From an uncultured bacterium (GTDB taxonomy: Bacteria; Patescibacteriota; Patescibacteriia; Magasanikbacterales; GWA2-37-8), in NCBI GenBank assembly GCA_937903605.1, contig CALCZC010000007.1, forward strand, positions 37,982 to 101,981: 64,000 nucleotides of DNA, read 5' to 3'. This document shows positions 22,325-41,363 of the stretch, piece by piece. The position numbers were made by a program, and so were the translations under genes. Numbering within the stretch: position 1 is the stretch's first letter; the number at the start of each line of letters is the position of its first letter. The notes beneath the pieces are model-generated. The model was not told the DNA's origin. It searched no databases and saw only the letters and a list, made by a program, of their open reading frames with translations.

Positions 22325-22556
22325 AAAATACGAAAAATACACAAAAGATTTCCGAGTTAATATCGGAATCTCTTTTTTTGTAATTTTACAGGAAAAAAAA
22401 GAAATTTGCAAGGCAAATTTCGACTTCGGACTATAGACTACAGACTGTAATTAGACTTCAGTCAATCAGACTACGGACTACATATAGACTGGAGTCTGAA
22501 GACCGTAAATTATTGACGTTTTTTATTTAATATTAGCCAAAAAACAGCTTAGACAC

Positions 22557-22585
22557 TTGACAAAATAGTCAAAATATGCTATCAT
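22557..22585 (+). promoter_or_regulatory. Near-consensus sigma-70-type promoter (TTGACA-17-TATCAT)
   Basis: TTGACA at 22557-22562, 17-nt spacer, TATCAT at 22580-22585. Sits inside a repeat-dense 620-bp intergenic region, about 440 nt upstream of the next ORF. Confidence 0.5.
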
Positions 22586-23029
22586 ATATTGTTTAGTGCC
22601 TGGATTTTCGCTAAAATATGTTTAGACTTCGGACTACGGTCTACGGACTTCTCGGTAAGCAGAAGACTGAAGACAGTAGACTGAAGACCAATATCGCTCT
22701 TTACAATAAATGTGTGTGTTTAACCGGACTTCAGACTACAGGCTACAGACTACAAAATCTGGAGGCTGAAGACTGAAGACCGAAGACTAGTGTTAATTGG
22801 ATGAAGAGAGAAAAGTATGAAATAAGCTAGTAAGCAATAAGCTTGTAAGTCTACCTATCGGTAGACAGGCTGATAAGCTAAGAAGTTGACGAGATACAAA
22901 GCCCATGAAATAAATTTTAAAGAGGGCTGTAGTCAGAAGACTGTAGACTGAAGACCGAATTTACTTTTTTCTTTCCATCCAATTAACATATATTTTAAGC
23001 ATTACAAACAACAATACAAGGAGCGTGTC

Positions 23030-23656
23030 ATGAAGAACACCAAGAAAAACGCCTTCGCTTCCGTTTTCATCTCGTGTATCATTTTTATTACCTTTATCAC
23101 TATCACTTCATGTGGCGGTGAAGAACCGAATCTGCCTGACGACGATCAGGACAATGACGAAATCGCTGTTACCGACGATGAGCCGGTTGACAACGAACAG
23201 CCTGATGATGTAGTGGACGAAGAACCGGTTGACGATGATCAGCAGATTGATTGGTGTGGCCGTCTGGACCAGAACTATCGTCTCAGTGGTGAACCGATTT
23301 GGGAAGACCCGGAATTTCATTATGAATATCCGGTTACAATGACCAACAAAAAAGAGGGCTGTAATGTTATTTCGATGAACGAAGAACACGGCCCCTACAT
23401 TGAGTTCACTACTCAAGCTGAAAGTCTTCCGCTGGAAGGTCCTGACACCGCATATAATAACGGTTGTATCTGGTTCCTTTTCAAGCACGATCCGACTCCT
23501 TTTGGAAAAGATCAAGGACTCCTTTGGAGAAGGATTTGTCCAAAAGAACTTTTTGACAAATGGGAAGTTGAATGCCGAGAATTATCGGAAGATATTCCGG
23601 TAAAATACAAAGACGGAAATTGGTGCGCTGACTGGTGGATGGATGTCTACCGATAA
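23030..23656 (+). CDS. Acidic lipoprotein, paralog A (signal peptide + lipobox Cys, D/E-rich linker, Cys-containing C-terminal domain)
   Basis: MKNTKKNAFASVFISCIIFITFITITSCGGEEPNLPDDDQDNDEIAVTDDEPVDNEQPDDVVDEEPVDDD. Signal peptide with lipobox-like TSCGG. The N-terminal 70 aa are paralogous to the 25354 and 27619 genes. RBS AAGGAG. Confidence 0.6.
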   Translation: MKNTKKNAFASVFISCIIFITFITITSCGGEEPNLPDDDQDNDEIAVTDDEPVDNEQPDDVVDEEPVDDDQQIDWCGRLDQNYRLSGEPIWEDPEFHYEYPVTMTNKKEGCNVISMNEEHGPYIEFTTQAESLPLEGPDTAYNNGCIWFLFKHDPTPFGKDQGLLWRRICPKELFDKWEVECRELSEDIPVKYKDGNWCADWWMDVYR

Positions 23657-23671
23657 GCGTCCAAAAATTCA

Positions 23672-23708
23672 AAGAGCCAAGGCTTTCTGCCGAGGCTCTT
23701 TTTTTATT
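23672..23708 (+). terminator. Rho-independent terminator after lipoprotein A
   Basis: AGAGCCAAGGC...GAGGCTCT hairpin + TTTTTTT. Confidence 0.55.
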
Positions 23709-23761
23709 TATCCTGTGAAATTCTAAATATTTTAATATTGTAATATTTTAATATTTTATTT

Positions 23762-23931
23762 CTATTCAACTATCACACTCCCATTATATAGCACCCAGGC
23801 TTTATTTTGAGTTTGAACACAATCGTTTTGATTTACGGAAATTTCAGCATAACACCCGTTCCCCGTATAATTAGGATTCATACCTGTATCACACCTTCCA
23901 CTACACCACCCCCAATTATCCAACACCTGAA
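23762..23931 (-). pseudogene. Orphan start-less copy of the Cys-rich C-terminal module (QVLDNWGWCSGRC...NGSVIVE) found at the C-terminus of the giant protein
   Basis: 217 bp (23715-23931) are identical except for one synonymous base to 25980-26196. Reading frame gives QVLDNWGWCSGRCDTGMNPNYTGNGCYAEISVNQNDCVQTQNKAWVLYNGSVIVE* but is preceded by an in-frame TAA directly after the ATPase stop. No start or signal peptide. Confidence 0.5.
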
Positions 23932-23935
23932 AATT

Positions 23936-25141
23936 TTATATCTGCCAAGGATAAAATAAATTATTTTTATCAATCTGTTTTTCTTTATCCAAAACAACAT
24001 AATTTAAAGCGATTTGAGGATAGTTTTCCAAAAATAATTTATATTTTTCATCATTATAATTACTACTTTTTGTTTTAACTTCAAAAGCTTGTTTTTCTTC
24101 AACAATAAAGTCTACTTCTTTTTTGTCGCGTGTCCGCCAAAATTTCAAATCTTCAGTGTCATACTTATTTAACAATTGACGAAAAGCCCCATTTTCAAGT
24201 AGTTGTCCCTTATCATCACGTTCATAAAAATTATCGAAATTATTTTTGAAGAAATTACGCATACCAGAATCACCAAAATAACATTTGGGCATTTTGATTA
24301 GTTCTTTGCGTATATTTTTATAAAACGGTCGCATTAAAAAAATATGAAAACTTTTTTGCATAACCTTCAAGTATTTATCAATCGTTATTTTGGTAACTCC
24401 AAGAGTCGCAGAAAGCTCGGAAATATTTACCAGCTCCCCTACTTGCCCGCTCAATATTTTCATCAATCGGAAAAAAGTTTCCTCTTGATTTATGTCGGCT
24501 TCGTAAATATCTTTTTTGATATACGAATACGCCAAATCTTTCAAAACCTCTTGTTTCTCCGGAATACTTTTGGCCAATACTACCCGCGGATAACCCCCAT
24601 AAGTTAGATATTCCAAATATAGCGGCATTATTTTTTCTTGAAGTTGTAACGGTAATTCTTTTGATATATCTGTTTTAGACAAATCATCCTCACCTTTAAA
24701 TTTCAAAAACTCTTCAAAAGACAGAGTTAATAAATACAAAATTTTCTTTCTGCCGGCCAATGAATCTTTGAATTTTTTATCCAAATAAAAAGCAGAGGAA
24801 CCGGAAGCGATGATTTTTATTTTCCCTTTATATTCATCATAAAAATATTTCAAAAAATTAGAGGGGTCTTTTAAATATTGAATCTCATCAACAAAAAGAT
24901 AGTTCCTTTTTTCTTTATCAAAAGGAATAATATTAAATAAATTTTTCGGAGAATCATTTAAAAGACGCAAAAAATCAGGATCTTCTAAATTTAAAAAATG
25001 GCATGTATTTCCATTTTGTTTTAAATATTCAAGAGCTTGGCGCATACTGGTAGTTTTGCCAACTTGCCTGGGTCCTATGATCAACACAACTTCGTCGTTT
25101 GATAAATTTTCTTTTATATTAGCCAAAATTTTTCTTTCCAT
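23936..25141 (-). CDS. AAA+ ATPase of the AAA_14/DUF4143 family
   Basis: Walker A LIIGPRQVGKTT, Walker B YLFVDEIQ, C-terminal DUF4143-like region (YFGDSGMRN, WRTRDKKEVDFIVE). Confidence 0.75.
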   Translation of the reverse strand: MERKILANIKENLSNDEVVLIIGPRQVGKTTSMRQALEYLKQNGNTCHFLNLEDPDFLRLLNDSPKNLFNIIPFDKEKRNYLFVDEIQYLKDPSNFLKYFYDEYKGKIKIIASGSSAFYLDKKFKDSLAGRKKILYLLTLSFEEFLKFKGEDDLSKTDISKELPLQLQEKIMPLYLEYLTYGGYPRVVLAKSIPEKQEVLKDLAYSYIKKDIYEADINQEETFFRLMKILSGQVGELVNISELSATLGVTKITIDKYLKVMQKSFHIFLMRPFYKNIRKELIKMPKCYFGDSGMRNFFKNNFDNFYERDDKGQLLENGAFRQLLNKYDTEDLKFWRTRDKKEVDFIVEEKQAFEVKTKSSNYNDEKYKLFLENYPQIALNYVVLDKEKQIDKNNLFYPWQI

Positions 25142-25223
25142 ATAGTTATTTTAGATAATTTATATACTACAATATATAATATATCAGACTATTTATATTT
25201 TGTCAATATAAAAAAGATATTTT

Positions 25224-25370
25224 TCTCTTGACAATCCCTCTGTTTTATGTCAATATACGTTGTTTAGTCTCAATATCTGCGCTAAAATAAAAAATATAAA
25301 TAGCTCTTTAATAATTTTTTAATGTGTTATAAACTTTTTGCAAGGAGAGTGTCATGAAAAAGAACGCTTT
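25224..25370 (+). repeat. About 147-bp promoter/leader repeat (copy 1), identical to 27489-27635
   Basis: TCTCTTGACAATCCCTCTGTTTTATGTCAATATACGTTG...TTTTTGCAAGGAGAGTGTCATGAAAAAGAAC is shared verbatim upstream of lipoprotein genes B and C and includes a TTGACA box. Confidence 0.7.
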
Positions 25371-25851
25371 CACGGTCACGGTTGTGGCCATCGCCTTTGC
25401 CTTCATTTTCATCGCCTGTGGCGGTGAGGAACCGGAACATCCGGATGACGATCAGAACAATGACGAGATTGCTGTTACCGACGATGAGCCGGACAACGAA
25501 CAGCCCGATGATGTTATCGATGAAGAAAATCCTGATGAAGATCAAGTAGTTATCGCAAATTGCGAAAAATTACTTGACATTGTCGGAGATTGGACTAGTA
25601 TCAATATTGAAGGGTATGATATTACGGTAACAGTCACACCCAAAGAAAAAAATTGTGAAGTAGCAGTGGAATGGACCAAAGGATATTCCGGAGTACAAAA
25701 ATGGTATGGATTAGAGCTCCCCCTGACTTATTGGGAAGAGGAAGCTTATAGAAACTACACCCTGAAAAAAACCGGAGAAAATCTGGTTCGAGAAGATACT
25801 CTTAAAACTGGAGGATTTGATAATGAGTGGGTCTTCAAAAAAATTCAGTAA
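25354..25851 (+). CDS. Acidic lipoprotein, paralog B
   Basis: MKKNAFTVTVVAIAFAFIFIACGGEEPEHPDDDQNNDEIAVTDDEPDNEQPDDVIDEENPDEDQ. Lipobox FIACGG. C-terminal ~90-aa domain with 2 Cys, similar to paralog C. Confidence 0.6.
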   Translation: MKKNAFTVTVVAIAFAFIFIACGGEEPEHPDDDQNNDEIAVTDDEPDNEQPDDVIDEENPDEDQVVIANCEKLLDIVGDWTSINIEGYDITVTVTPKEKNCEVAVEWTKGYSGVQKWYGLELPLTYWEEEAYRNYTLKKTGENLVREDTLKTGGFDNEWVFKKIQ

Positions 25852-25918
25852 TTCGGATACAGGAGTCCGAATTCTGAATTTAGAGGGTAGGAAAAAAAAC
25901 ACACCCTCAAAACTTCAA

Positions 25919-25946
25919 AGCCCAGGCATTGCCTGGGCTCTTTTTT
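25919..25946 (+). terminator. Rho-independent terminator after lipoprotein B
   Basis: AGCCCAGGC ATT GCCTGGGCT + TTTTTT. Confidence 0.6.
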
Positions 25947-26026
25947 ATCCAATTTTTCTTTTCTTAATATCTTCACCCCGTGAAATTCTAAATATTTTAA
26001 TATTGTAATATTTTAATATTTTATTT

Positions 26027-26263
26027 CTATTCTACTATCACACTCCCATTATATAGCACCCAGGCTTTATTTTGAGTTTGAACACAATCGTTTTGATTTA
26101 CGGAAATTTCAGCATAACACCCGTTCCCCGTATAATTAGGATTCATACCTGTATCACACCTTCCACTACACCACCCCCAATTATCCAACACCTGAACTCG
26201 CGGGAATCTGGCGTTAATAGGACCTGAATAATAAATACTTAAATAAAATATAATATTCTTCAC
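26027..26263 (-). CDS. Orphan Cys-rich C-terminal module ORF (78 aa, no signal peptide), paralogous to the giant-protein C-terminus
   Basis: MKNIIFYLSIYYSGPINARFPRVQVLDNWGWCSGRCDTGMNPNYTGNGCYAEISVNQNDCVQTQNKAWVLYNGSVIVE. The 3' 217 bp is identical to 23715-23931. Lies directly downstream of the ATPase gene. Confidence 0.45.
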   Translation of the reverse strand: MKNIIFYLSIYYSGPINARFPRVQVLDNWGWCSGRCDTGMNPNYTGNGCYAEISVNQNDCVQTQNKAWVLYNGSVIVE

Positions 26264-26271
26264 TACAAACT

Positions 26272-27396
26272 TTAAACCAAAAACTCTAAATAATTTTCTC
26301 TATTGATCACTTTGTATTCACTCTCTGAATATGTTTTTTTCCAGTCTTTTGGTGCGTCTTTTTTAAAATTTTGCGACCATTTTATTTCAAAGGCTCGAAG
26401 CTGTCCGTCTTTATCCTCAATCAAATCTATTTCTTGTCCGGCATATGTTCGCCAAAAATAAAGATTACCATAACTTTCTTTATATTCATCTTTTTTTATT
26501 TTTTCCATTACTACAAAATTTTCAAATAATCTTCCGACATCATCTCTATCATTTAAATCATTAAATTGTGAAATTACTGCATTTCTGATACCGTTGTCTA
26601 AAAAATAATATTTAGCTTTAGTCGTAATTTCTTGGCGTAAATTGCGAGAAAAACCACCCATCCTTTTTATTACAAAACCTTTTTCCAAAATATCCAGATA
26701 TTTAGCCACCGTTTTTACATCCATTTTTATCTGCGTTGCCAATTCACTCAAAGAAACCTCATTACCAACTTGAAAAGCCAATAACTTTAACAAATTTAAA
26801 AGCTGAAAAGAGCCACGAATTTTTTCAATATTCAAAACATCTTTTAATAAATAAGAAGATACCAATTCATTGAGTATCGCAATCTTTTCTTTTTTTGTTT
26901 TTGCTAAAAATACTTCTGGATAAGAGCCAAAAATCAAAAACTCTGTAAGCTTTTCTTGTAACTCTTGTTTATTATAAACATTCAATAACTCAATTTGAGA
27001 AAAAGGATATAAAATCAAAGTTTTCTTTCTTCCGGTAAGTGGTTCCCCTATTTTTTGTTCTAAATCAAAAGAAGACGACCCTGTAACCACCACATAAATC
27101 CCTGGAATTTGGTCAACTAAAATTTTCAACGCCATACCAATGTTTGGAATATTTTGTGCTTCGTCTATGGTAATCAATTCATACCCCTCTGCATAGGCTA
27201 AAATTTTGGAAAAATCTTGAGAAGCCAGTATTTCTTGGGTTTTGATATTATCCCCAGAATCAATTTTATATTTTAATTCAGTTTTAGCCAAAAAATCGTT
27301 TAAAAGAGTTGTTTTCCCTACTCTTCTAGGCCCATAAACAACTAAAACTTTGTTTTTTTGTTTAATATTAGCCAAATTATAATATCTTGGTAACAT
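26272..27396 (-). CDS. AAA+ ATPase of the AAA_14/DUF4143 family (divergent paralog of 23936-25141)
   Basis: Walker A VVYGPRRVGKTT, Walker B LITIDEAQ, C-terminal DUF4143-like region (YFLDNGIRN, WRTYAGQEIDLIE). Confidence 0.75.
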   Translation of the reverse strand: MLPRYYNLANIKQKNKVLVVYGPRRVGKTTLLNDFLAKTELKYKIDSGDNIKTQEILASQDFSKILAYAEGYELITIDEAQNIPNIGMALKILVDQIPGIYVVVTGSSSFDLEQKIGEPLTGRKKTLILYPFSQIELLNVYNKQELQEKLTEFLIFGSYPEVFLAKTKKEKIAILNELVSSYLLKDVLNIEKIRGSFQLLNLLKLLAFQVGNEVSLSELATQIKMDVKTVAKYLDILEKGFVIKRMGGFSRNLRQEITTKAKYYFLDNGIRNAVISQFNDLNDRDDVGRLFENFVVMEKIKKDEYKESYGNLYFWRTYAGQEIDLIEDKDGQLRAFEIKWSQNFKKDAPKDWKKTYSESEYKVINRENYLEFLV

Positions 27397-27488
27397 ATAT
27401 AATCATTACTTTTTAATTAAATATAAGGATTTCTATTCCTTATATTTATTATAAAATAAAGGAATAGAAATGTCAAGAGAGAAAAATG

Positions 27489-27635
27489 TCTCTTGACAAT
27501 CCCTCTGTTTTATGTCAATATACGTTGTTTAGTCTCAATATCTGCGCTAAAATAAAAAATATAAATAGCTCTTTAATAATTTTTTAATGTGTTATAAACT
27601 TTTTGCAAGGAGAGTGTCATGAAAAAGAACATCTT
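27489..27635 (+). repeat. About 147-bp promoter/leader repeat (copy 2)
   Basis: Identical to 25224-25370. Confidence 0.7.
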
Positions 27636-28143
27636 TTCGGTCACGGTTGTAACCATTGCCTTTACCTTCATTTTCATCGCCTGTGGCGGTGAGGAACCGA
27701 ACCTTCCTGATGATGATCAAGACAACGATGAAATCGTTGTTGTCGACGATGAGCCGGACAATGAACAACCCGATGATATCGTGGACGAAGAGCCGGTTGA
27801 CGATGACCAGCTTCCGCTGGAGGAAGTTTGCAAGAATTTCCTTGACTATGCCGGAAATTGGACTATCGTTGATATGAGTTTTACCGGTGATTTCAGTGTG
27901 ACCCTCTCAGTTGAAGGAGAGGAATGCAAGATATCTGTTGTTGGCACAACGGAATTGGCATGGATTTTTGCCTGGAAAGGGAAAGAGATGCCTCTTGCAT
28001 GCGCTGAATTTGCGCCTATGACTTATTTTTTTTACCTTGTGGGGAAAAATGAAGCTGGGAGAATGATCTGGATAAAAGGTTGGGATGAAGAAAGTTGTAA
28101 AGATGCTGAAGCGGCAATGGTTATAACGCTTGAGAAAAAATAG
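27619..28143 (+). CDS. Acidic lipoprotein, paralog C
   Basis: MKKNIFSVTVVTIAFTFIFIACGGEEPNLPDDDQDNDEIVVVDDEPDNEQPDDIVDEEPVDDDQ. C-terminal domain (CKNFLDYAGNWTIVDM...ECKISVVGT) resembles paralog B (CEKLLDIVGDWTSINI...NCEVAVEWT). Confidence 0.6.
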   Translation: MKKNIFSVTVVTIAFTFIFIACGGEEPNLPDDDQDNDEIVVVDDEPDNEQPDDIVDEEPVDDDQLPLEEVCKNFLDYAGNWTIVDMSFTGDFSVTLSVEGEECKISVVGTTELAWIFAWKGKEMPLACAEFAPMTYFFYLVGKNEAGRMIWIKGWDEESCKDAEAAMVITLEKK

Positions 28144-28177
28144 CAGGAGGTAAAAATGCACACAAATACAAGCTAAA

Positions 28178-28206
28178 AGCCAGGGTAAAACCCTGGCTCT
28201 TTTTTA
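28178..28206 (+). terminator. Rho-independent terminator after lipoprotein C
   Basis: AGCCAGGG TAAAA CCCTGGCT + TTTTTTT. Confidence 0.6.
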
Positions 28207-28256
28207 TTCTTTATATCAACTTTATATACTTAATACTAAATACTTAATACTTTATA

Positions 28257-31200
28257 CTATTCTACTATTACATTTCCATTATATTCTATCCAGGGATACA
28301 TTGGAGAAGCAGGATTACCATTTTCAGGTACACAATCGCTTGCCGCACCATCTGCATAACACCCATAATTCCTTGTTCCATAAGGATTATTCGTAGTGCA
28401 TCTCCCACTACACCACCCCCAATTATCCAAAACCTGGACTCGCGGAGTACTAGTACTTGGAGTACTGGTATAAGTAAAGTGAAATTCGTATGGCGTGTTT
28501 TTGCAACCAGTACCATCTGTACCGCTCTTATTTCCAAAACTTCCCGGATCATTGTCTCCTTCTACAAAAGTAACACAGCGAGATGTTTGAACTGTCATCT
28601 TACCTCCAGCTTTCTTTTTTGCATCATAAAATACACAGTCTTCAGCTTTGTTACAAGGAATTTGATATTGATAGTTTGCTGGTTCATATTCACACCATCC
28701 AACGTGAGTACAAAGCGGTTTGCGGTTAGCAATACTGCGAGCTTCCAAAACTATTGCGGGGTCTTCGGTTTTTGTTTGATACATTATCCGACGTACCGGC
28801 ATTTGTGCCGGGTCAGCCCAAGCATAAAATTCCAGAGCCACATCGGAATTAGGACTTACGGTACAATTACCACCACTTAACAATTCATCACTACAATTTG
28901 ACTTATTAACCACTACTGTATTTAAAGCAAATGTTTTACAATCAGGTTTTCCACCTGCGGCTTTATAAGCCTCGCAATCCGCAGATCCGGGAGATAGTTG
29001 TATAGGCGCAGCAATCACTGGTGGTTTGATATTAACGTCACAACTCGAAGCCCTTTCAGGACTGGCACAATCTATTGGGGATTTAAAAGTTAATTTGGTT
29101 GGCTCCTTGAATTCATTTACCGAGCTGGTTGGGAAGACCCTGACAAACATATTTTTTAACATTTCCCCATATTTAAGGTCTTCTAAACTATAAATTCCAA
29201 ATCTAGGAAAACTAATTTCTGTTTCTATGTCATTTCTATTTTCATAAGAAATCAAGGGACTACGTACACGTTCACGTTCATCCAAATAAAAACCAAATTC
29301 ATTTGTTTTTCCCCCATAATATGTAGTCAAGAAAGGATTTGTCAAATCGGGAAAGGTAAAGTAGCCTGTCATATCCAACTTCGGTTCCTTGATGCCCTGA
29401 AAATAAGATCTATTTAAAGTATACGAATTGGTAGCAAAACGAGTGCTAGCCGTTTCATCTTTTGGAATATTGTAAACCGTATATGTTTGATCAGGATATA
29501 GCGTATCACCCATATTGGTTTTTCCTTTGATTAATCTCCAAGTAACTGGTTTGGCGTCAATGGCAATTTCAGCTGCTTGGGCACTTGCCCCTGGAGGACG
29601 ACTATTTTTTGAAACTTTGGCAAACTCTGTACAAGAACCATCAGAAAAATGTATGACAAAGAAAAAATTAATACCTGCTGTATGACCAGCATTATCATGT
29701 AAATCCAGTTGCGCACCGAGTAATTGATCATCGCTCCCCCAAATAATCCTTGCACCAAAACCATCAAAATCGGTTTCATATGAATTAGCTTCAAATTTTG
29801 TAGGACTTGTCGGCAAACCAAAAGTATCTTCTGTTTCGCTATAAAAAAACATTTTTTTCTTGTCCTTTGATTCAAAATAATCATACTCCTCACCTTCTCC
29901 TTTATTAGCCATAACCTTAACTTCCCAAATAGTTTTTCCATCCTTCTTGTAAGTACTTTTTCTTATTAATTGTTCTCTGTTATTACCATCTTTTAGCGGT
30001 ACTCCGAGTTTAGATTGCTTAATACAAACATCTTCCAAATCGTTTTCGCAATCATAACTTTTTTTATCGGTCGAATTTTTTTCTTTGGGCGAACAATCTA
30101 CTCCCTCTGTCAAATAACAACCGGTAATCTCTTTATTTTCAAAAGTAATAATGTTGTTGTTGAAAAATTGTTCTGTTGCTATTGGATTATCTGTACCATT
30201 CGCGACTATCCAGCCGGGAGACTCTCCTATACCAAAAAAATTAACCACGCCCTTTTTCTTCAATTCTTGGTAAGTTTTCCCCAAAACTAAATCTATTTTG
30301 ACCACATCTGTTTTCTTGATTTTTCCATTATTGTAAAAAGACGGTTCTGTAGCAGGAGTAAAAACACCAGTGAGTCTATCTTGAAATTCGCTGACTTTAT
30401 TATTATCAAGACTTAATGGACAATATACTCGAGTGTTATCTTTTTTTAGACTTTCAATAACTCCTTGTCTTAGAACAGGAAAAACCTTATTATCCATATC
30501 ATTGAAACATTTCAGTATATGAGCATTCGGTGGTAAATTATAAACCATGGCCGAAGAAACGTAGTTATGGTATGTAATCGTCTGAGAAGCTTGAACCATC
30601 CAATCAACTACCACACCTAGAGCTGCCACCCAACCGAATATAGAACTTACCGAAGCTGCAACAGCTGCCGCAATAGAGGCTGCAACCGCTCCGCCTATGG
30701 CTCCCGCTATACCTGTAATAAGGGCTGTCGTTCCAGCTACCATGCCAAAAGTTAAGGGGAACGAGCCACCATCAACCCAAGCAACACCTACGGCCGCATA
30801 TTTTTCCTCGTTGTTTATTGCTAATGCAGCATCTGTCATTTCTTGTGTTGAAGTAGAAAAACAAACATATTCTTCATCAATCTCATCTACGAGATATACT
30901 TCGCCAATCTTTCCTCCTGGTGTAGTTGTACAATACCCAGCATCACTCATTTGTTGAGTACATTTCAATGTATCCACTTGCATGTATGGCTTTGTACATC
31001 CTCCCCTAGTTAAATAAGCTGTTTCACACACACATCCTTTTTCCCATACCACCTGTTTGCTTGTAAAAAACTTATCACTTTTTACCATATTTATAGAAAA
31101 AGCATTGGCACCAGCTCCACCCAGATCAACGCAATTATCATTATCACCACCTAGATCACAATATTTGAAAACATCCACAGTGGTTGTCCTGCTTTCAACT

Positions 31201-34200: not shown

Positions 34201-37187
34201 ATATTTTGAGGTAAACCGTTGTAAATACAAAAACCTGTTGCCGTATCATAAAAAACAACATTGTCATTGCTGGCTGCGTTTTTCAAACCATCAAAACCAC
34301 CTAGACAATTTGTTTTGTTGCCGGAAATATCATAAAATTCAGATTTTACCGCTCTATACGGCGTACATTTATCCGATACTACCACTGTCTTGCTAAAATA
34401 AGCGTGATAAACTATACCTTGATCATCACGAAAAGCCCGACAATCTCCGGAAATGTCTGTTGCAGCAGTAGTAGAATTACAAGGAGCCATACCTGATTTT
34501 TCCGCTGGATCACGAAAATATTGAGCCGGCTGTTCACCGTTTTTGAGCAAAGTATAACTCTTGAGTTTATAACCTCCCCCTTCTCTTCCTTCGTAAGTAT
34601 AAAAATTCTTTTGTCTATTTTGATCCGGAGTCATGCACAGCCGCAAATCGCTGTAATATTCTGTCTGCACATTGCCGCCGGCAGTCACATTGAGATTTAC
34701 AAAAGCACTACAACCCTCTTCCTCCGAATCACATGTTGCTTCAACTTTGGGAATAATATAAACCAAGTCGTTGCCGTTACTATATTTGGTTTTCATTTCT
34801 TTATAAGAATTGTACCCTTCGCAAACAGATGGACATTCATCGTTCATAACAATTCCCCCGCTAACGTTTGCACGTCTAATAAACTTACCAACTATAGTTT
34901 CTTCTTTTGAACCTTCAAAAACAGCTAGAGGTAACTTGGTATACTGATTACAGCCTTCTTCTTCCGGTAAACAAATTCCGGCGTAATTAGCACATTCTGC
35001 CGGATTAACCGGTTTGATTTGATTAAGTTCTGATAAAGTTCTCGGCCATTGGATACCATTGTCCGGATTACTGTCTTTATCATAACAGCGTAAATAGTCC
35101 GGGGCTTTTTTGATAAATAATTCCTGACCAATTTCTTTGGTATTGGAAGCGTTGGTAATAACTGAAAATACTCGACTACAGCCGGCATTCTCGGCTTTGC
35201 ATGTCAAAACTTGATTATTAAAAAAATAAGAATAATTATTGCGAAAAGCACCGATTCCATCGGGAGTAGTGCTTGACAAAGCAGTAATATTTATTGTTGG
35301 AGAATATTTTTCTTGCCATTGTCCTACATTATTTTTATAAGCGGTGAAAAAGGTACAGCCAGCATTTTGTTCACTACACCAAGTATTGTCCAAGGTCTTC
35401 TGTAAATAAGTGACATTTTTACCTTTGGAAGAAGTAAATGATTTGCATGTATCATATTGACTGTCGCAATAATCAGCATTAAAGCGCCAAATATTTTTTT
35501 CTTCTAAACAATAACCATAAGCATTACAATTTCCTTTACTGTCATAGCCTACGCAACTCTGTAAATCCGCGCATTCTTCTTGTCTTATGGATATATCATC
35601 GTCAATTGTTCGTCCAGTATAAACAATCGCTTTACATCTAGTTTTTGGCATTTTCAATATCCAGTTGGGATTTACCATTTTATAATACTTAGAAGATGGA
35701 TTGTGAAAACCAGCCAAAACCTCAGAAAGTTTTGGTGGTGTTCCGGTTGCAGTTGCGGCTAAAATTTCCATACCTAACGGCCAGACTCTGGCTTTGCGCA
35801 ATACTTTGATATTGTCATAACAATAGGCTGATTCATAACATCTATCCCCTTTTGAAGCTATGCTTTCATCGGTTTGAAGACCTATTATTTGATGATCATC
35901 TATTTTTTCATATTGCAACGCTTCAGCAATTGTTAGAGGTCGCCCGTTCATATCAACCTCGCGTAAATAATCAGCAAATTTTTCATCCAAAATACAATTT
36001 TCCGCTGTATCACTACTATCATGATTACAAGTTCTAAAAAGAGCGAGTAAATCGTAATTATCATCGGATTTATTTTTAGCAATCAAAAGATCAGCAAAAA
36101 TCATTGCTGCTTCTTGTCGGAAAGTAGAAGCTCTAGCATCTTCATAATATCCTTCGGCAGTATATTTACTCTCTACACAAGTATCTATAGCTAGACCACC
36201 TATTTTCAAATAACTCGGGACACATTTGATTTTTCCTAAACCAAACGGGAACATCCCTTTATTAACAAAATTATCCACCATGGTACCGGCAAAAGTATTG
36301 ATGAAAGTGGCTGCAGCATTTTTCAGAACCTGGATACTTCCTTTTGTCAAAGCCGCTCCCATATAGACAGCGGTAGTTTGTTTTTCCGATTCGGCTTTTG
36401 CCGCCGGACCCGAACCGCGCAGTGTATCTCTATTAACTTCTGCCGGAGTCAAAACATCTTTGGAAATCAAAGAACTGAGAGCCTTGGTTCCTCCGTCTGA
36501 AGTACGCTCAGCTTTGGCTGCTTCCTCGGCTTTGAGAGTATAATCATCAATTTTACCTTTAGCTGCCAATCCTATACCCATATCAGTATCTGTAATATCC
36601 AAAGAAGCATTAAAAGTTTTGGAAAAATTTTCTCCATTGGCTCCCCAATATTTACTCTTGATGCCTTCAGCACTATAATTATCACGTAATTGTTGCCAGG
36701 TACAAGACGGTTTTTCTAAATCTGAATAACCCAAGTGCAAACCCATTTTCAAAGCCAAATCTAACTTCACATCCGGTAAGGCGCAAAGATTGAAGCCTAT
36801 ACCCTGTCCAAAACTATCTAATGCCGTTCCCAAAGCATCGCTGGCCACACCGGCAAAATAATTTCCTACGCTTTTCCTGTGAAACAACGGTGATTGCCCC
36901 CAATTTCCCGAAGCCAAAGAAACCGCCAAATCATAAGAAACTTTATTCAACATATAATCAACTCCTTTTACCACACCCAGCATTACCGCATCTAGAAGAT
37001 TATTCTTTATTTTGGTTAAGTTTTTTTCCAATTGTTCTCTGATAGTTTGTCCGGCTTGTTGGCTTTCAACCCCAGGAGCCGCGACCGTAAGCTGAGCTTT
37101 GGCTGAAGAAAAAGGTATAAGAGAAAAACAAAAAATAAGCAGAAGAAAAATTGCTATCAGCTTATTTATATTATTAAAAAATTTCAT
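28257..37187 (-). CDS. Giant secreted Cys-rich surface protein (2976 aa) with an internal Gly/Ala-rich two-TM hairpin and the conserved C-terminal NWGWC module
   Basis: Signal peptide MKFFNNINKLIAIFLLLIFCFSLIPFSSAKA. Many Cys throughout. Hydrophobic GSFPLTFGMVAGTTALITGIAGAIGGAVAASIAAAVAASVSSIFGWVAALGVVVDW (about nt 30600-30770). C-terminus PRVQVLDNWGWCSGRCTTNNPYGTRNYGCYADGAASDCVPENGNPASPMYPWIEYNGNVIVE. Confidence 0.7.
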   Translation of the reverse strand: MKFFNNINKLIAIFLLLIFCFSLIPFSSAKAQLTVAAPGVESQQAGQTIREQLEKNLTKIKNNLLDAVMLGVVKGVDYMLNKVSYDLAVSLASGNWGQSPLFHRKSVGNYFAGVASDALGTALDSFGQGIGFNLCALPDVKLDLALKMGLHLGYSDLEKPSCTWQQLRDNYSAEGIKSKYWGANGENFSKTFNASLDITDTDMGIGLAAKGKIDDYTLKAEEAAKAERTSDGGTKALSSLISKDVLTPAEVNRDTLRGSGPAAKAESEKQTTAVYMGAALTKGSIQVLKNAAATFINTFAGTMVDNFVNKGMFPFGLGKIKCVPSYLKIGGLAIDTCVESKYTAEGYYEDARASTFRQEAAMIFADLLIAKNKSDDNYDLLALFRTCNHDSSDTAENCILDEKFADYLREVDMNGRPLTIAEALQYEKIDDHQIIGLQTDESIASKGDRCYESAYCYDNIKVLRKARVWPLGMEILAATATGTPPKLSEVLAGFHNPSSKYYKMVNPNWILKMPKTRCKAIVYTGRTIDDDISIRQEECADLQSCVGYDSKGNCNAYGYCLEEKNIWRFNADYCDSQYDTCKSFTSSKGKNVTYLQKTLDNTWCSEQNAGCTFFTAYKNNVGQWQEKYSPTINITALSSTTPDGIGAFRNNYSYFFNNQVLTCKAENAGCSRVFSVITNASNTKEIGQELFIKKAPDYLRCYDKDSNPDNGIQWPRTLSELNQIKPVNPAECANYAGICLPEEEGCNQYTKLPLAVFEGSKEETIVGKFIRRANVSGGIVMNDECPSVCEGYNSYKEMKTKYSNGNDLVYIIPKVEATCDSEEEGCSAFVNLNVTAGGNVQTEYYSDLRLCMTPDQNRQKNFYTYEGREGGGYKLKSYTLLKNGEQPAQYFRDPAEKSGMAPCNSTTAATDISGDCRAFRDDQGIVYHAYFSKTVVVSDKCTPYRAVKSEFYDISGNKTNCLGGFDGLKNAASNDNVVFYDTATGFCIYNGLPQNIVVAGGAESKICSQDKVSCRKYQGNTGNNIRDIFPTYSFDSGIGLTNMVSNTKRGWWKTSESADNGTTISLSEETLSNFGKSLKVTVAANSGTATRGFRHYNTDIKNTGVYSLSFLAKGTKRWDITLGNGFTYNVGTVNLTDNWRRYEFVISNPAISGSVPSGEGAHIIFLDYNRAGGVIFLDNVSLKSIDDTVYLVKDKLSVPASCDLDQKDNLPGSALGCRAYKSPLSKDNIYLHNFSYLCRDGAIGCTRLVDTYNKGSNIASTTWQIFNLGLQKPEVGNKPTIQINGINYDCIVPDGEGGCYVNASGIGQSSLTGAAFTTSTVLVYKQTSPTSSPIYLTIRKNDNVNNFCNKDNVGCTLMGKGYKNVTNTYVFEDAYIINDPTRYESSGSNNRGILCTKEAEGCDVWRSGSGNYYFKDPENIGKKVCVYKEETVGNSKIGKWVLKDDETQVCATGLGISLPPFGNTTSYRGYVGECPSSQDGCSRFDDHNDVSVKKCSISGMKCEYDKDCSSQQGDTCIPAANSYYLIDNGKLSEKINEECPNGASVNYGCVLLDQVNNPNKKYNTEATYEASNAVKGAPVPPVETETRDANILVKVARDRECNLWMYCNNYQVEDDKARCYSFGLCSKSLPGMFSEGNCDQNVTLDSWAWRNSKITTSNYRSRGVNWADPELSGYTLHNSYQIPSLGVRYIRMNDVEPYNVGNLVQSSGEEGVYFEPRLVHWENSGNIFVPGQGNVQECNKFDNTMTKSCGLNKEGLCLGGECIYPITGGIENNMIRNRGKLRTSGELSCRGYPEENSPFDPWGIIETIEGVTPVSRSAYAYLVKNKALEICTTVNKEDSCDCSYKKVEYNNQFVYFPLGTERESQSICIGGSLETEGTPCVNSEQCGGGICANKKSVNEVRGWQGYCVEKNPKYKLYGEPEQNPCLTWWPVEVPPGAPDIWIIDKKAAYEGNDTKDRYMCIANQPLKLKPLPNLEFYFNAGNPVSAGEIDNAKNVEVESRTTTVDVFKYCDLGGDNDNCVDLGGAGANAFSINMVKSDKFFTSKQVVWEKGCVCETAYLTRGGCTKPYMQVDTLKCTQQMSDAGYCTTTPGGKIGEVYLVDEIDEEYVCFSTSTQEMTDAALAINNEEKYAAVGVAWVDGGSFPLTFGMVAGTTALITGIAGAIGGAVAASIAAAVAASVSSIFGWVAALGVVVDWMVQASQTITYHNYVSSAMVYNLPPNAHILKCFNDMDNKVFPVLRQGVIESLKKDNTRVYCPLSLDNNKVSEFQDRLTGVFTPATEPSFYNNGKIKKTDVVKIDLVLGKTYQELKKKGVVNFFGIGESPGWIVANGTDNPIATEQFFNNNIITFENKEITGCYLTEGVDCSPKEKNSTDKKSYDCENDLEDVCIKQSKLGVPLKDGNNREQLIRKSTYKKDGKTIWEVKVMANKGEGEEYDYFESKDKKKMFFYSETEDTFGLPTSPTKFEANSYETDFDGFGARIIWGSDDQLLGAQLDLHDNAGHTAGINFFFVIHFSDGSCTEFAKVSKNSRPPGASAQAAEIAIDAKPVTWRLIKGKTNMGDTLYPDQTYTVYNIPKDETASTRFATNSYTLNRSYFQGIKEPKLDMTGYFTFPDLTNPFLTTYYGGKTNEFGFYLDERERVRSPLISYENRNDIETEISFPRFGIYSLEDLKYGEMLKNMFVRVFPTSSVNEFKEPTKLTFKSPIDCASPERASSCDVNIKPPVIAAPIQLSPGSADCEAYKAAGGKPDCKTFALNTVVVNKSNCSDELLSGGNCTVSPNSDVALEFYAWADPAQMPVRRIMYQTKTEDPAIVLEARSIANRKPLCTHVGWCEYEPANYQYQIPCNKAEDCVFYDAKKKAGGKMTVQTSRCVTFVEGDNDPGSFGNKSGTDGTGCKNTPYEFHFTYTSTPSTSTPRVQVLDNWGWCSGRCTTNNPYGTRNYGCYADGAASDCVPENGNPASPMYPWIEYNGNVIVE

Positions 37188-37284
37188 ACTTTAAAGCAGA
37201 ACGAATTATTAATTATTGTTTATTGTTTATTAAAAAACTTTTATGTTTTTAAAAAATAAACAATAATCAATACGCAATAATTTT

Positions 37285-38268: not shown

Positions 38269-38285
38269 AAAAATAGTTAGAAAAA

Positions 38286-41200
38286 TTATGATCTTTTAGC
38301 TTTATCTATTTTGTCTGTCAAGATTTTAATTCTTTGTTCTAGGACCTTTTTACCATCGCCTTCTTTTACTGATTTTAAGAGAGTATTAACGAGTTTTTCA
38401 AATTGATTAACATTACTTTTATTGACAGCGGCTTCGTTTATAGAGGCAAAGATAGTGGTAAAATCTTTATTACCCAGAGCCTGACCACTTTTTCCTTTAA
38501 ATATAGAATCTACATATTTTAAAACTTCATCCCCTATACCACACATTATACCGTCTGCATTTACACTCCCCAACGTAGTTAATTTATCGGCTTTTCCTCT
38601 TTCTATAGCGTAAGAAAAATCATTACTCGGTTTTTCTCGCCAAGCATATATAAGTTTACCGGTGGCTCTATCAATTTCCTCTGATATTAAACCAACACCG
38701 GTAAAATCACCGCTCATAGAGGCCTTTTTAAAATTATTAGCAAGTGTACCCAAAAAAGATTGGTATTCTCCTTCGCTAGAAAATCTATCTCTCAGCTTAT
38801 CTTTTCCTTCTTCTTCCTTACCTTTCTCAACATAGCTTCCTAACAGTTGTGTGAGTACTGCCCTATCCCTGTTTTCCATATTTATTTCTCCTTCTTTCGC
38901 AAAAAACCCGGTTTCATTTAAACAGGCCACTCTAGTATCACGAGAATTTTCTCCACCAACACTGGCATTATATGAAGCCAAAGCTGCCTTTCCTCTGTAT
39001 AATTTAGCAAGCTCCTTTTTTAAATCTTTATAGCCTTGAGTGTTAATATCTGTCGCTTTACTTATCGCCATTTCAACTTTTGCTATCGCTTTAACTTGTC
39101 CTTTTTCTGCTGCTTCTAGTTGTTTAGGGGTCAGGTTACTTAAAATTTCAGCATCTTTTTTAATAGCAAGATTATTAGCTGACGCTTCCATGGCATCCCC
39201 ACGAACTGGGTCTCCTGAACGTCTATAAGCGTCTCCTGTGTCCTTAAGAGCAATTTGTTGCTTCTTTATTTCTTCGTCGCTTAATTCTATACCTTTACCC
39301 GCTATATCTCTTATCCTGGCAAATTCTTTATCTCCTGCAGCAATATCTTTATCCACTTTTTCCTTCCCTTCAATTCTAACATTTCCGGCTTGGGCTTTAA
39401 GACTTTCTATTTCGACTTCCAATTTTTCAGCTCCTTCTATTTTATCTATAGATAATTTTTCTAACCCTTTTAATTCGTCTTTATAATCTCTTAAAAAACC
39501 TTCACTCATTGCTCTACCTTCGTCGGTTATGGTAGGATCTTTTAAAAAATCTTCTAACTCTTTAATTTGCTCTTTCTTTTTTCCTATCTGATTGTCAATA
39601 TTATTATATTCTTCTTGGACACCGGACAATTCTCCTTCTTTTTTTCCTGCTTCCTCCTCGAGTCTTTTGGCTTCTTTTTCTATTGGAACCATTCCTTCGG
39701 TTCTTTGTTTTTCTATTCCTTCTCTCCACTTTTTTTCTGACTCGTCTTGTTCGCCTTTGACTAACTGTTCTCGCTGTTTGTTGATTTGATTCGCCTCACG
39801 TTGTTTGGTGTTTAATTCATCAATAATTATTTTATGAGCATCATTTTGTCTAAATTTACCTTCAACTTCTTGAAGGATAGCCGGCATACCGGCTTCTTTT
39901 AATTTTTCTCTTTGCTGTAAATTATATTTTAGCAATTCTGTTTCTTTTTTAGCTTCAAAAGTAGCTAGAGTACCGACTTGACTATCAAAAATTCCTTTTC
40001 TTGTGTCTAATTGTTTTTTTCTAGCCGCTCTCAATTTTTCACGTTCCATATATTTATCCGCTCTATTGGCCCAGAAACCTTTCTCGCCTGTTAATTTTTC
40101 TTTATCGTAACTTCTTTCCAAAAAAGCCAGTCCCCTTAGTTGAGCCATATCTTTTAGATCACCCCCTATATTAACGGCTTCGTTTTTGATTCCGCCCCAA
40201 GTTTTTTTAACTCCCCAACCAAGAGCAGCAACGCCGGACGCTGTCATCGCTACTTTCTTGGCAGTGCTCATCGCCGAGCTCAAAGCTCCGGCACCACGTA
40301 CGCCAAGTTGTTGAGTTTTTTCAACACCAACCATGAGTAAAGCTATGGCAATAGCAAAGGAAGCCATAGTCGGCCATTCTAACATTTCATTGATGCCAGA
40401 GCTAGCTCCCTCAACAGAAAAAACTTGTGTTACAGCACCTTCGTCTCTGGTAAAATTTTTATTTTCAAATTCTTCATTATATATTTCTCCGCTACCGGCG
40501 ACAGCAAACGATAACCAAAAGAAAAAAGCTAAAATCGGCCCGGCTAAAACGTGGTTGTTAAATTCTTTCCACCACTCAGTAGCATATTTTTGGGTTGCTG
40601 GTAAAACACTACTGATAAAAGCTACAGGAGATAATATGATAAGCACCCACAATACCACCACCCTGTACAACATGATAACCATATAGGCTCCCAAAACAAA
40701 AAAACTGATAACACTAAAAAATACAGTTGCTACTGCAGCTATCAAATAACTGATATCATTTATTTTTTCAGCTTCAGCTTGTGTTGATAACAACCAACCT
40801 TTTTGCAATTTCAAGGCATTTATAACATTACCTCCAGCAGTAGCCGCAAAACCATTGACAAAAGTCATGGTAAAAACCTGAGCCGCATCTATAATTACCC
40901 CGCAAATCAAGCGGCTAAAATTTACCAATACGGCAGCAAAAACTAATTTAACTAAAAGTTTTTTCCATTCATATTGTTCCAAACCAAGTACTGTGCCAAA
41001 AGCAATAACCAATAAAATCAAAACAAAAAACATATTTACCACATCACGCACTAATACCCATCCTAAAATAACTGTTTTTGAATTTATAAAATCATTATAA
41101 CTGGCAATAGTAATAAAAAAATTGGTAGCAAATATAGTCAAGCCGATAAACAGCTTGGCCATAGCCCAACAAATCAAAGTGATAAGCGAACCAATTCCCG

Positions 41201-41363
41201 CCGCAACCGTATCTGTTACCCAACCAAAAGCAGCGCTAGCTTCATTAGTGTTGATTACAAAAAATAATAAAAAGAATAACAAAAACAATGAGAGAAACTT
41301 TCTTCTATCCCCTCTTGTTTTAAAATTCAAAATATTCTTAATTTTTCCCAAAAAAGACGACAT
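38286..41363 (-). CDS. Multi-pass membrane protein (signal peptide + about 6-7 TM) with an about 700-aa charged coiled-coil C-terminal region. VirB6/TrbL-like architecture (hypothesis only)
   Basis: N-terminal hydrophobic helices (GIGSLITLICWAMAKLFIGLTIFATNFFITIA, FVLILLVIAFGTVLGL, LVFAAVLVNFSRLICGVIIDAAQVF, YLIAAVATVFFSVISFFVLGAYMVIMLYRVVVLWVLIILSPVAFI, GPILAFFFWLSFAVAG). Then E/K/R-rich heptad repeats to the C-terminus. Confidence 0.55.
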   Translation of the reverse strand: MSSFLGKIKNILNFKTRGDRRKFLSLFLLFFLLFFVINTNEASAAFGWVTDTVAAGIGSLITLICWAMAKLFIGLTIFATNFFITIASYNDFINSKTVILGWVLVRDVVNMFFVLILLVIAFGTVLGLEQYEWKKLLVKLVFAAVLVNFSRLICGVIIDAAQVFTMTFVNGFAATAGGNVINALKLQKGWLLSTQAEAEKINDISYLIAAVATVFFSVISFFVLGAYMVIMLYRVVVLWVLIILSPVAFISSVLPATQKYATEWWKEFNNHVLAGPILAFFFWLSFAVAGSGEIYNEEFENKNFTRDEGAVTQVFSVEGASSGINEMLEWPTMASFAIAIALLMVGVEKTQQLGVRGAGALSSAMSTAKKVAMTASGVAALGWGVKKTWGGIKNEAVNIGGDLKDMAQLRGLAFLERSYDKEKLTGEKGFWANRADKYMEREKLRAARKKQLDTRKGIFDSQVGTLATFEAKKETELLKYNLQQREKLKEAGMPAILQEVEGKFRQNDAHKIIIDELNTKQREANQINKQREQLVKGEQDESEKKWREGIEKQRTEGMVPIEKEAKRLEEEAGKKEGELSGVQEEYNNIDNQIGKKKEQIKELEDFLKDPTITDEGRAMSEGFLRDYKDELKGLEKLSIDKIEGAEKLEVEIESLKAQAGNVRIEGKEKVDKDIAAGDKEFARIRDIAGKGIELSDEEIKKQQIALKDTGDAYRRSGDPVRGDAMEASANNLAIKKDAEILSNLTPKQLEAAEKGQVKAIAKVEMAISKATDINTQGYKDLKKELAKLYRGKAALASYNASVGGENSRDTRVACLNETGFFAKEGEINMENRDRAVLTQLLGSYVEKGKEEEGKDKLRDRFSSEGEYQSFLGTLANNFKKASMSGDFTGVGLISEEIDRATGKLIYAWREKPSNDFSYAIERGKADKLTTLGSVNADGIMCGIGDEVLKYVDSIFKGKSGQALGNKDFTTIFASINEAAVNKSNVNQFEKLVNTLLKSVKEGDGKKVLEQRIKILTDKIDKAKRS

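Follow-up and report, generated by a model that had tools for sequence, protein, structure and literature searches.

The stretch of DNA analysed here, hereafter called the window, is 64,000 nucleotides (nt) long and belongs to an uncultured bacterium of the Patescibacteriota (GTDB lineage Magasanikbacterales; contig CALCZC010000007.1, positions 37,982 to 101,981). It carries a gene for a giant secreted protein of 2976 amino acids (aa), and downstream of this gene are located two orphan copies of the C-terminal module of the giant, each facing, as the expressed copy does, a lipoprotein gene transcribed in the opposite direction. This locus is probably a polymorphic array of 'tip plus partner' cassettes, located where a conserved gene for a giant surface protein ends, an account that is architectural and recombinational in kind and that we take to be the likely one. 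The giant represents a family of surface proteins, previously undescribed and unannotated, that is characterized by a conserved motif, a hypervariable tip stapled by disulfides and a co-inherited lipoprotein.

The giant gene and the parts of its 3' end are as follows.

28257..37187, minus strand: giant secreted protein gene, 2976 aa (ORF map, that is, map of open reading frames)
28257..28802, minus strand: exchangeable C-terminal region of the giant, the last ~181 aa, from FYAWADP
28257..28436, minus strand: expressed module copy, with the QVLDNWGWC anchor, two variable loops, four-Cys scaffold and terminal YNGNVIVE strand
28405-28430: exact 26-nt anchor in the expressed copy (sequence match)
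28175..28201: bidirectional hairpin terminator between the giant 3' end and lipoA, predicted on both strands

The giant has a signal-like hydrophobic segment at its N-terminus, a hydrophobic hairpin at aa ~2150-2198 and Cys residues all along its length. Translation of the 3' end of its ORF gives ...PRVQVLDNWGWCSGRC...YNGNVIVE followed by the stop codon, and the region 28257..28802 is the longest stretch of the giant that recurs as an orphan in related contigs. Three exact copies of the 26-nt 5' anchor, CCACTACACCACCCCCAATTATCCAA, and no more, are present (at 23898, 26163 and 28405), with 0 occurrences expected from 100 shuffles. An earlier note on this DNA, made from the sequence alone, had described the core between the flanks as variable. 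Two loops within it indeed vary, but a four-Cys scaffold (C-x3-C ... GCY ... C) is conserved inside the core, and in the window's clade its elements WGWC, G.C, GCY and.C are fixed while loops 1 and 2 are variable; thus just two loops are truly variable.

Within the 64-kb window only three copies of the module were found. The two orphans, the terminators that follow them and the three lipoprotein genes are located as follows.

26027..26263, minus strand: orphan module 2, 78 aa, GTG start
23762..23931, minus strand: orphan module 1, without a start codon, reading from (F)QVLDNW
25919..25939: hairpin terminator between orphan 2 and lipoB (terminator prediction)
23671..23700: hairpin AAGAGCCTCGGCAGAAAGCCTTGGCTCTT between orphan 1 and lipoC, read from the sequence and aligned with the other two terminators
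27619..28143, plus strand: lipoA, lipobox IACGG, ~45-aa acidic linker, convergent with the giant gene
25354..25851, plus strand: lipoB, acidic lipoprotein of 165 aa
23030..23656, plus strand: lipoC, acidic lipoprotein of 208 aa with a distinct Trp/Cys-rich C-domain

The ORF map, the minus-strand sequence and the translations all agree with the three copies as the earlier note had placed them, with orphan 1 start-less and orphan 2 lacking a signal peptide. Orphan 2 is also without an obvious ribosome-binding site; its homology to the giant begins at about 26208 (FPRVQVL), and the preceding 64 nt form an unrelated leader. Orphan 1 starts 4 nt past the stop codon of atpB, an ATPase gene. Both orphans encode (F)QVLDNWGWCSGRCDTGMNPNYTGNGCYAEISVNQNDCVQTQNKAWVLYNGSVIVE up to the stop codon, and the identity of about 100% that had been claimed for them over 217 nt amounts to 216/217 nt (23715-23931 versus 25980-26196), the 3' tail included. 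In the nucleotide alignment with the giant 3' end, the 5' anchor and the last ~35 nt are kept, and substitutions and indels are found between them, again as described before. Each module copy is followed by a hairpin terminator and then by a convergent gene for an acidic lipoprotein, the three lipoproteins being paralogous to each other.

LipoA, lipoB and lipoC each contain a lipobox and an acidic linker, and are alike in their N-terminal halves and divergent in their C-domains. The C-domain of lipoA (27808-28140), the one type for which the fold was modelled, was predicted by AlphaFold2 (AF2) to form a helix and an eight-stranded β-barrel (pLDDT 92.6, pTM 0.84). By comparison with folds of lipocalin, avidin and MliC type, the C-domain may be a calycin-like small β-barrel, and small barrels of this kind are common among binding and inhibitor proteins. 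The lipoA type has only 7 relatives among 1.84 billion representative proteins, suggesting that lipoprotein C-domains evolve very fast. The other two types recur in related loci (designated hereafter by L and a number): the lipoB type of C-domain is common to the lipoproteins located beside 'NYTGNGCY...KAW' cores in L001, L061 and L066, and the lipoC type is also found beside 'NGY[SD]YGCY' cores in L005, L065 and L072. Because the giant and lipoprotein genes converge, the tip and the lipoprotein C-domain adjoin in the DNA, and together they form one variable block of ~0.6-0.8 kb with conserved DNA on either side. An intact, promoter-bearing lipoprotein gene is carried by every cassette. Neither the lipoproteins nor the module gave a match in scans of Pfam, NCBIfam and PADLOC. 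The candidate role of the module as a sorting signal was ruled out, its tail being variable, Cys-rich and non-hydrophobic and no known anchor family being matched.

The three units, two of which contain an ATPase gene next to the module copy, form a tandem repeat with the following additional features.

26272..27396, minus strand: atpA, AAA_14 + DUF4143 ATPase of 374 aa (Pfam; PADLOC PDC-S01, E=7.7e-141)
23936..25141, minus strand: atpB, AAA_14 + DUF4143 ATPase of 401 aa (Pfam; PDC-S01, E=3.6e-93)
27397..27618: divergent intergenic region between lipoA and atpA, from 27475 on 90% identical to 25210-25353
27448-27476, minus strand: atpA promoter, 12/12 consensus
25178-25206: atpB promoter, 11/12 consensus

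That two copies adjoin AAA_14/DUF4143 ATPases, as noted before, is borne out by the Pfam match; AtpA and AtpB are 32% identical and both match PDC-S01 at full length. PDC-S01 is a family of single-gene defence ATPases with candidate status only in PADLOC. To this extent the earlier statement that nothing here is a known named system needs amendment, and otherwise the Pfam, NCBIfam and PADLOC scans were blank, as it implied. The non-homologous stretches 23932-25209 (atpB and upstream) and 26197-27474 (leader, atpA and upstream) are each exactly 1278 nt long, and the period of the repeat is thus exactly 2265 nt despite the difference between the ATPases in length and sequence. The units are mosaics, in which identity is 90% for the lipoprotein promoter and N-terminus, 97-100% for the module and tail and 32% (protein) for the ATPases, and in which the lipoprotein C-domains can barely be aligned. 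Simple duplication followed by decay was ruled out by this pattern of identity. An Rfam scan of 22000-29000 gave no match.

Cassette exchange at the conserved anchors occurs between strains. Across atpA and the orphan leader, as far as ...TGGTGTAGTGG, the contig L005 hardly differs from the window; a different core then begins, and from GGAAGTGTGATAGT, the last codons of the module, on L005 is the same as the orphan-1 tail and lipoC of the window. L005 thus carries a single unit, against two in the window, with a different core between the same anchors. In L066 and L001 the ATPase gene atpC is 99.5% identical and is associated with the same ~45 upstream codons, but the core and the lipoprotein differ. 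The lipoprotein of L001 is a hybrid, with a C-domain of the lipoB type and a 5' end of the lipoC type. This 5' end is 92.5% identical in nt to the window, with the same spacer and valS beyond, which puts one breakpoint at the linker, within the lipoprotein gene. In the related genome L072, which is ~68-75% identical in nt over the giant gene and the two genes preceding it, the expressed giant C-terminus together with its lipoC-type lipoprotein is the cassette that is orphaned in L005 (88.8% nt identity) and L065 (84.5% over 1190 nt). Finer exchange is seen in L008, a mosaic with loop 1 of the L006/L070 type and loop 2 of the type of the window giant and L060. In L074, a variant of lipoA is directly preceded by the spacer found beyond lipoC in the window, which suggests a strain without the orphan array; the number of units thus varies between strains (L005 and L074). 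A Logan assembly of the same strain from a second sample (L073, 99.96% identical) carries the same giant C-terminus as the window. As a side observation, the sole difference between L073 (1740-1830) and the window (~28810-28900) is a 1-nt indel in a G run, which splits the giant ORF ~10 codons upstream of FYAWADP, where long orphans begin, and which may reflect either a genuine frameshift variant or a fault of the assembly.

For the conservation of the giant family, one genome per GTDB species was scanned with the peptide [RK]VQVLDNW. The peptide was detected in 50 loci, most of them titled Candidatus Magasanikbacteria or other Patescibacteria, and in nearly all loci it belongs to an open frame 2600-3300 aa long, with 46-98 residues between it and the stop. 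As protein, P[RK]VQVLDNWGWC is essentially invariant over about 50 species, with synonymous sites varying freely. The 40-90 residues past the motif are hypervariable in both length and sequence, and the protein then ends in W..Y.G.I.V.P. Further upstream, conserved islands (FYA.AD..MP.RR, FGN...C and F.H.Y.C) delimit a C-terminal region of ~180-250 aa. The conserved flanks are thus primarily structural elements of a C-terminal domain that is itself conserved. The earlier note had read them as recombination anchors, and cassettes do recombine there (L005, L066/L001 and L072); the notion of special recombination signals is contradicted by their nature as protein motifs with free synonymous variation. 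A convergent ORF with signal peptide and lipobox was detected by an automatic test within 600 nt of the giant stop in at least 24 of 42 loci, and by eye in at least three further loci (L009, L018 and L040). These ORFs often include an acidic or Ser/Asp-rich linker, and a convergent lipoprotein follows the giant also in a distant branch with the motif VHVRDNWGWC. Three short homologues of the distant branch (P0013, P0020 and P0022), considered as orphans, turned out to result from gene calling that had split full-length giants.

The giant gave no match in Pfam, NCBIfam or PDB sequences, and PDB sequence searches with the C-terminal profile, the N-domain of the neighbouring protein p1025 and the whole giant were likewise without match. 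The last giant domain gives the impression of being PKD-like (DWGDG ... H.Y.C ... VQVLDNWG ... I.V.P), an impression from sequence only; when 19 C-terminal regions were compared with Pfam at E<=1, nothing meaningful and no PKD match emerged. Literature searches on the giant family returned nothing relevant. Several GTDB representative metagenome-assembled genomes with the giant gene (L008, L011, L012, L021 and others) are titled 'uncultured Gammaproteobacteria bacterium' and are probably mislabelled third-party annotation (TPA) assemblies.

The clade of the window was recovered by protein look-ups and by a metagenome scan with the anchor, and most of the related contigs are short metagenome fragments. 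Protein searches were shallow (4 matches for the module and 1 for the last 476 aa), and DNA scans of genomes and metagenomes were far more productive. Within this clade the order is always ATPase, orphan and convergent lipoprotein, with 1-3 orphans on each related contig. The orphans keep 0-180 codons of giant homology upstream and fall into three classes by start point, namely FYAWADP/DPAQMP (~180 aa from the end; L060, L061, L065 and L069), DPxxFGNT (~100 aa) and FPRVQVL/QVL (~60 aa).

The core and the lipoprotein vary together. Among 13-14 module/lipoprotein neighbours, the identity of the cores correlated with that of the lipoprotein C-domains (Mantel r=0.70, p=1e-4, when orphan 1 of the window is left out; r=0.41, p=0.002 with it included). 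The recurrent pairings are the PW/giant type of core with lipoA-like, NYTGNGCY..KAW with lipoB-like and NGY[SD]YGCY with lipoC-like lipoproteins. As for selection, all of the orphans (11 or more) are open to their natural stop, with no stops or frameshifts though they are 40-90% diverged. The ratio of nonsynonymous to synonymous substitution rates (dN/dS) is 0.26-0.47 for orphans, compared with each other or with expressed tips, 0.08-0.17 for lipoproteins and 0.03-0.06 for ATPases. The low orphan ratios together with the open frames indicate that divergence took place mostly under purifying selection, either while the copies were expressed or through reuse; to judge from these sequences, the orphans are not old pseudogenes.

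The array probably arose in the following way. The variable unit is one contiguous tail-to-tail segment composed of the giant tip, the shared terminator and the C-terminal β-barrel of the lipoprotein. To this unit the giant would contribute its last strand-loop-strand, with two hypervariable loops on a four-Cys scaffold, and the lipoprotein a barrel domain on an acidic tether, encoded by a convergently transcribed gene. Homologous recombination would take place in conserved islands, presumably FYAWADP, FGNT..C and P[RK]VQVLDNWGWC on the giant side and the signal peptide, linker and promoter on the lipoprotein side, and would swap both variable parts together. Upon acquisition of a new unit, the previous tip would be displaced downstream and would persist as a start-less orphan beside its own still-intact lipoprotein gene; in the clade of the window, ATPase genes of the defence-island type separate the units. 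The retained orphan units may serve as a reservoir, as keepers of protective partners, or as both. It is conceivable, though we consider it somewhat improbable, that tip and lipoprotein form a cognate binding pair in which, on the cell surface, the lipoprotein plays an immunity-like, masking or docking role. Still more speculative, and in our view unlikely, is the proposal that tip and β-barrel form a lock-and-key pair for self/non-self recognition (of kin, partner or host) by bacteria of the candidate phyla radiation (CPR), that the tail-to-tail layout evolved so that one event swaps both, and that the orphan arrays, possibly mobilised by the ATPases, are a reservoir of alleles.

Several observations weigh against the cassette-array account or against its extension to binding. 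In most of the giant-bearing species, no further copy of the module is located within 10 kb. The exceptions are the clade of the window and L017, which has the order giant, lipoprotein, 124-aa orphan and second lipoprotein, without an ATPase, an independent duplication of orphan and lipoprotein that speaks for the account. Physical linkage alone (~100-300 nt apart) can yield the correlation between core and lipoprotein, which is therefore no proof of binding. Nor is the pairing strict: orphan 1 of the window has an N-type core and adjoins lipoC, the usual partner of a Y-type core, a mismatch best explained by a recent conversion or duplication that placed the N-type core beside lipoC. The variable part comprises only 35-85 aa of loops, in which no toxin, enzyme or sorting domain was detected (Pfam, NCBIfam and PDB). 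The AF2 model of the last 199 aa of the giant is poor (pLDDT 46.5 from a 20-row alignment), and the strand-loop-strand reading rests on sequence patterns. The partner is convergent here, tail to tail, while known toxin/immunity pairs are co-directional. Finally, the ATPase stops that invariably abut the orphans, at many truncation points, are not explained by the model.

This last point bears on a different explanation, in which the region is an insertion hotspot for selfish or defence genes (AAA_14/DUF4143, MNT/HEPN), the orphans are decaying debris and the lipoproteins are duplicated neighbours, all without function. Each of the orphans adjoins the stop codon of an ATPase gene. The ATPases, with their match to PDC-S01, a defence-island candidate, and strong promoters of their own, read as defence-island-type passengers of the variable region. 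In other species MNT/HEPN-like pairs, recognized by eye from the sequence, occupy the same intergenic position (L017, L026 and L033). The orphans, moreover, lack starts, and those of the window represent a very recent duplicate. A by-product of this kind is nevertheless doubtful. Flanks of 90-100% identity around ATPases of 32% identity do not fit simple duplication with decay, debris would hardly keep the open frames and dN/dS values of at least 11 diverged orphans, and the lipoprotein paralogues are under strong purifying selection. In addition, orphan cassettes are expressed tips elsewhere, and L017 contains a duplicated orphan and lipoprotein without any ATPase. In L017 (11234-12185), the MNT/HEPN-like pair lies downstream of the second lipoprotein and is followed by a 101-aa ORF, of which the first ~20 residues repeat the orphan start SFGSTADTGCK and the rest is HEPN-like; from its sequence, this ORF would be a third, tiny giant C-terminal fragment fused to a selfish gene.

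The earlier note had favoured silent-cassette gene conversion. In its full form this would be a programmed variation of an antigen or ligand, with the orphans as dedicated donors that are copied at high frequency into the expressed 3' end within the clone. One expressed copy is indeed accompanied by promoter-less or start-less partial copies with conserved flanks, recombination at these flanks is documented between strains, the reassortment of loop 1 and loop 2 types in L008 is as predicted for segmental conversion, and intact orphan frames with dN/dS below 1 are as predicted for reuse. The repertoire of the window, however, is a single sequence present twice, and related contigs with their 1-3 orphans hold no library; most giant-bearing species have no orphan within 10 kb. 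Each cassette brings an intact partner lipoprotein gene, for which silent cassettes have no need, and the type of lipoprotein tracks the type of core, which is a signature of orphan C-terminal (CT)/partner modules (PMC3150448). The same strain in the other sample (L073) has the same tip, and neither a recombinase nor a special cis element was detected at the locus. Silent-cassette conversion within the clone is thus quite improbable here.

In the cassette-array account the ATPases are passengers. The orthologues of atpA in L005 (99.7%), L008 (96%) and L070 (88%) are each followed by a different orphan, and at least four ATPase types, 29-43% identical to one another, are present in the clade of the window. 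Across the junctions compared (window 23931-23938 and 26264-26274; L001, L005, L006, L008, L058, L065, L066, L069 and L070), orphans start 0-15 nt past the ATPase stop at five or more truncation points, with four ATPase types. A junction near DPExFGNT is common to three of these types, and the fragments in L017, without ATPase, also begin at FGSTADTGCK. A mobile unit of replacement tip, lipoprotein and ATPase, inserted into the 3' islands of the giant by the AAA_14/DUF4143 protein with its possible nuclease-like domain and bringing a replacement 3' end, as islands targeting gene 3' ends do, would agree with these junctions, with the exact tandem period and with the strain-dependent unit number, but is very improbable given that no integrase, transposase or terminal repeats were found, that the L017 orphans have no ATPase, that in L037 a 60% identical ATPase follows a giant-lipoprotein pair with no orphan, and that one ATPase type has several junctions, which are therefore not simply carried along by the gene. 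Literature searches on DUF4143 returned nothing relevant.

Among known systems, the array, by analogy, most resembles the displaced orphan CT/immunity modules of contact-dependent inhibition (CDI) and Rhs loci, but it is not a member of those families. The orphan cdiA-CT/cdiI and rhs-CT/rhsI modules consist of a displaced C-terminus and its partner, retain homology to part of the upstream sequence and occur elsewhere as fusions with full genes (PMC3150448; Poole et al. 2011). Common to both are a very large exported protein with a conserved body and a C-terminus that is polymorphic from a sharply conserved motif on, downstream modules of orphan C-terminus and partner with upstream homology (the cassette of L005/L065 being the expressed tip of L072), and a module number that differs between strains. 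CDI and Rhs loci also have a small co-varying partner gene next to the C-terminus. Its counterpart in this family may be the lipoprotein gene, which is adjacent in at least 24 of 42 loci and of which the type tracks that of the core (Mantel r=0.70), but it is convergent, its covariation could be explained by linkage alone, and orphan 1/lipoC is mismatched. Unlike CDI/Rhs proteins, which carry a separate toxin domain of 100-300 aa, the giant varies in disulfide-stapled loops of 35-85 aa inside a conserved domain, and no toxin fold was matched in Pfam, NCBIfam or PDB sequence. No CdiB or two-partner secretion, type VI secretion system, PAAR/VgrG, type VII secretion system or Rhs/YD domains were found in the giant, p1025 and p327; as a delivery feature, only the signal-peptide-like N-terminus was found in the giant. 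The partner also differs in being a surface lipoprotein with an acidic tether, the host in being a CPR bacterium, and the units in being separated by ATPase genes.

The likeness to other variable systems is more partial. In pilE/pilS, vlsE/vls and MgPa, many mutually different cassettes, none with a partner gene, take part in high-frequency conversion within the clone, and the Neisseria and Borrelia systems have dedicated cis elements. The locus shares with them one expressed gene, promoter-less partial copies and a variable core between potential recombination anchors, but differs in that its two orphans are near-identical, each with a partner gene, and in that no sign of within-strain switching was seen between the two samples of the strain. 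In the S/U and S'/U' genes of the invertible G segment of phage Mu and in the fibre and chaperone of R-pyocins, tips are associated with cognate chaperone genes, and, as here, a C-terminal tip and a small adjacent partner gene are exchanged as one cassette on a constant body. Here, however, no invertase or inverted repeats were found and the copies are direct; the partner is a secreted lipoprotein rather than a cytoplasmic assembly chaperone, and the locus is chromosomal among housekeeping genes. Dictyostelium tgrB1/tgrC1 and Proteus idsD/idsE are adjacent polymorphic surface-protein genes whose variable parts are thought or known to bind. They resemble the giant-lipoprotein pair, with its putative binding, as neighbouring polymorphic surface-protein genes inherited together, but have no orphan arrays and belong to unrelated protein families. 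A diversity-generating retroelement was considered in view of the hypervariable C-terminus of a surface protein, the near-copy nearby and a 23S_rRNA_IVP/bAvd-like gene 10 kb away, and was rejected: no reverse transcriptase was found among the genes scanned in the window, the copies differ by indels and at all bases, and the orphans are identical to each other and not to the expressed copy.

CPR bacteria, or Patescibacteria, make up a large share of bacterial diversity, and their cultured representatives live attached to other cells; to our knowledge, how they recognise partners or competitors is largely unknown. Exchange and archiving of the pair of tip and lipoprotein described here follow the manner of orphan modules in systems of contact-dependent competition. 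Should tip and lipoprotein bind each other, the pair would provide a testable handle on the cell-surface specificity of CPR bacteria, be it in competition, kin recognition or host choice, and an example of tail-to-tail gene orientation that keeps two co-evolving parts together. The lock-and-key proposal, if true, would add an undescribed cell-cell recognition system in a lineage of which the surface biology is almost unknown. Whatever the function, anchors and cassette types can serve to mark strains and to trace recombination in metagenomes.

On either side of the array the following features were identified.

22412..23029: lipoC-valS spacer, containing several patches of tandem repeats of 7 nt
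~22418-22446, 22621-22649 and 22723-22754: spacer repeat GACTAC[AG]
~22659-22702, 22758-22801 and 22926-22969: spacer repeat GAAGACT/CTGAAGA, alternating with the GACTAC[AG] patches
22557-22585, plus strand: promoter-like site in the spacer, 11/12
37285-38268, minus strand: p327, 327 aa
38286-41363, minus strand: p1025, 1025 aa, multi-transmembrane N-domain (12 hydrophobic segments) and coiled coil

The spacer between lipoC and valS is kept (81-91%) beside cassette units in L001, L066 and L074. The 1025-aa protein with multiple transmembrane segments and coiled coil is encoded on the strand of the giant, in line with the operon suggested before; p327 lies between the two, and the gaps are 17 and 96 nt. 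Scans of p1025 and p327 against Pfam, NCBIfam and PADLOC gave no match. In 24 other loci the giant gene has a homologue of p1025 as a neighbour, in most cases on its downstream side. The gene order p1025, p327 and giant is found in the window and in L072; in at least 20 other species (compared among L009-L056) the p1025 homologue is located 0-3 kb downstream of the giant, after the lipoprotein, and p327-like genes follow it in L014, L017, L021 and L043. The 23S_rRNA_IVP gene of the window (17957-18331, minus strand), 10 kb from the locus, encodes a 124-aa, weakly bAvd-like four-helix bundle. In L072 a 23S_rRNA_IVP/bAvd-like gene (2065-2451) is located directly between p327 and the giant gene; no reverse transcriptase was seen. 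At 46620-48215 and 48226-49788 (minus strand), beside enolase, are located tandem paralogous genes for cofactor-independent phosphoglycerate mutase (iPGM_N + Metalloenzyme).

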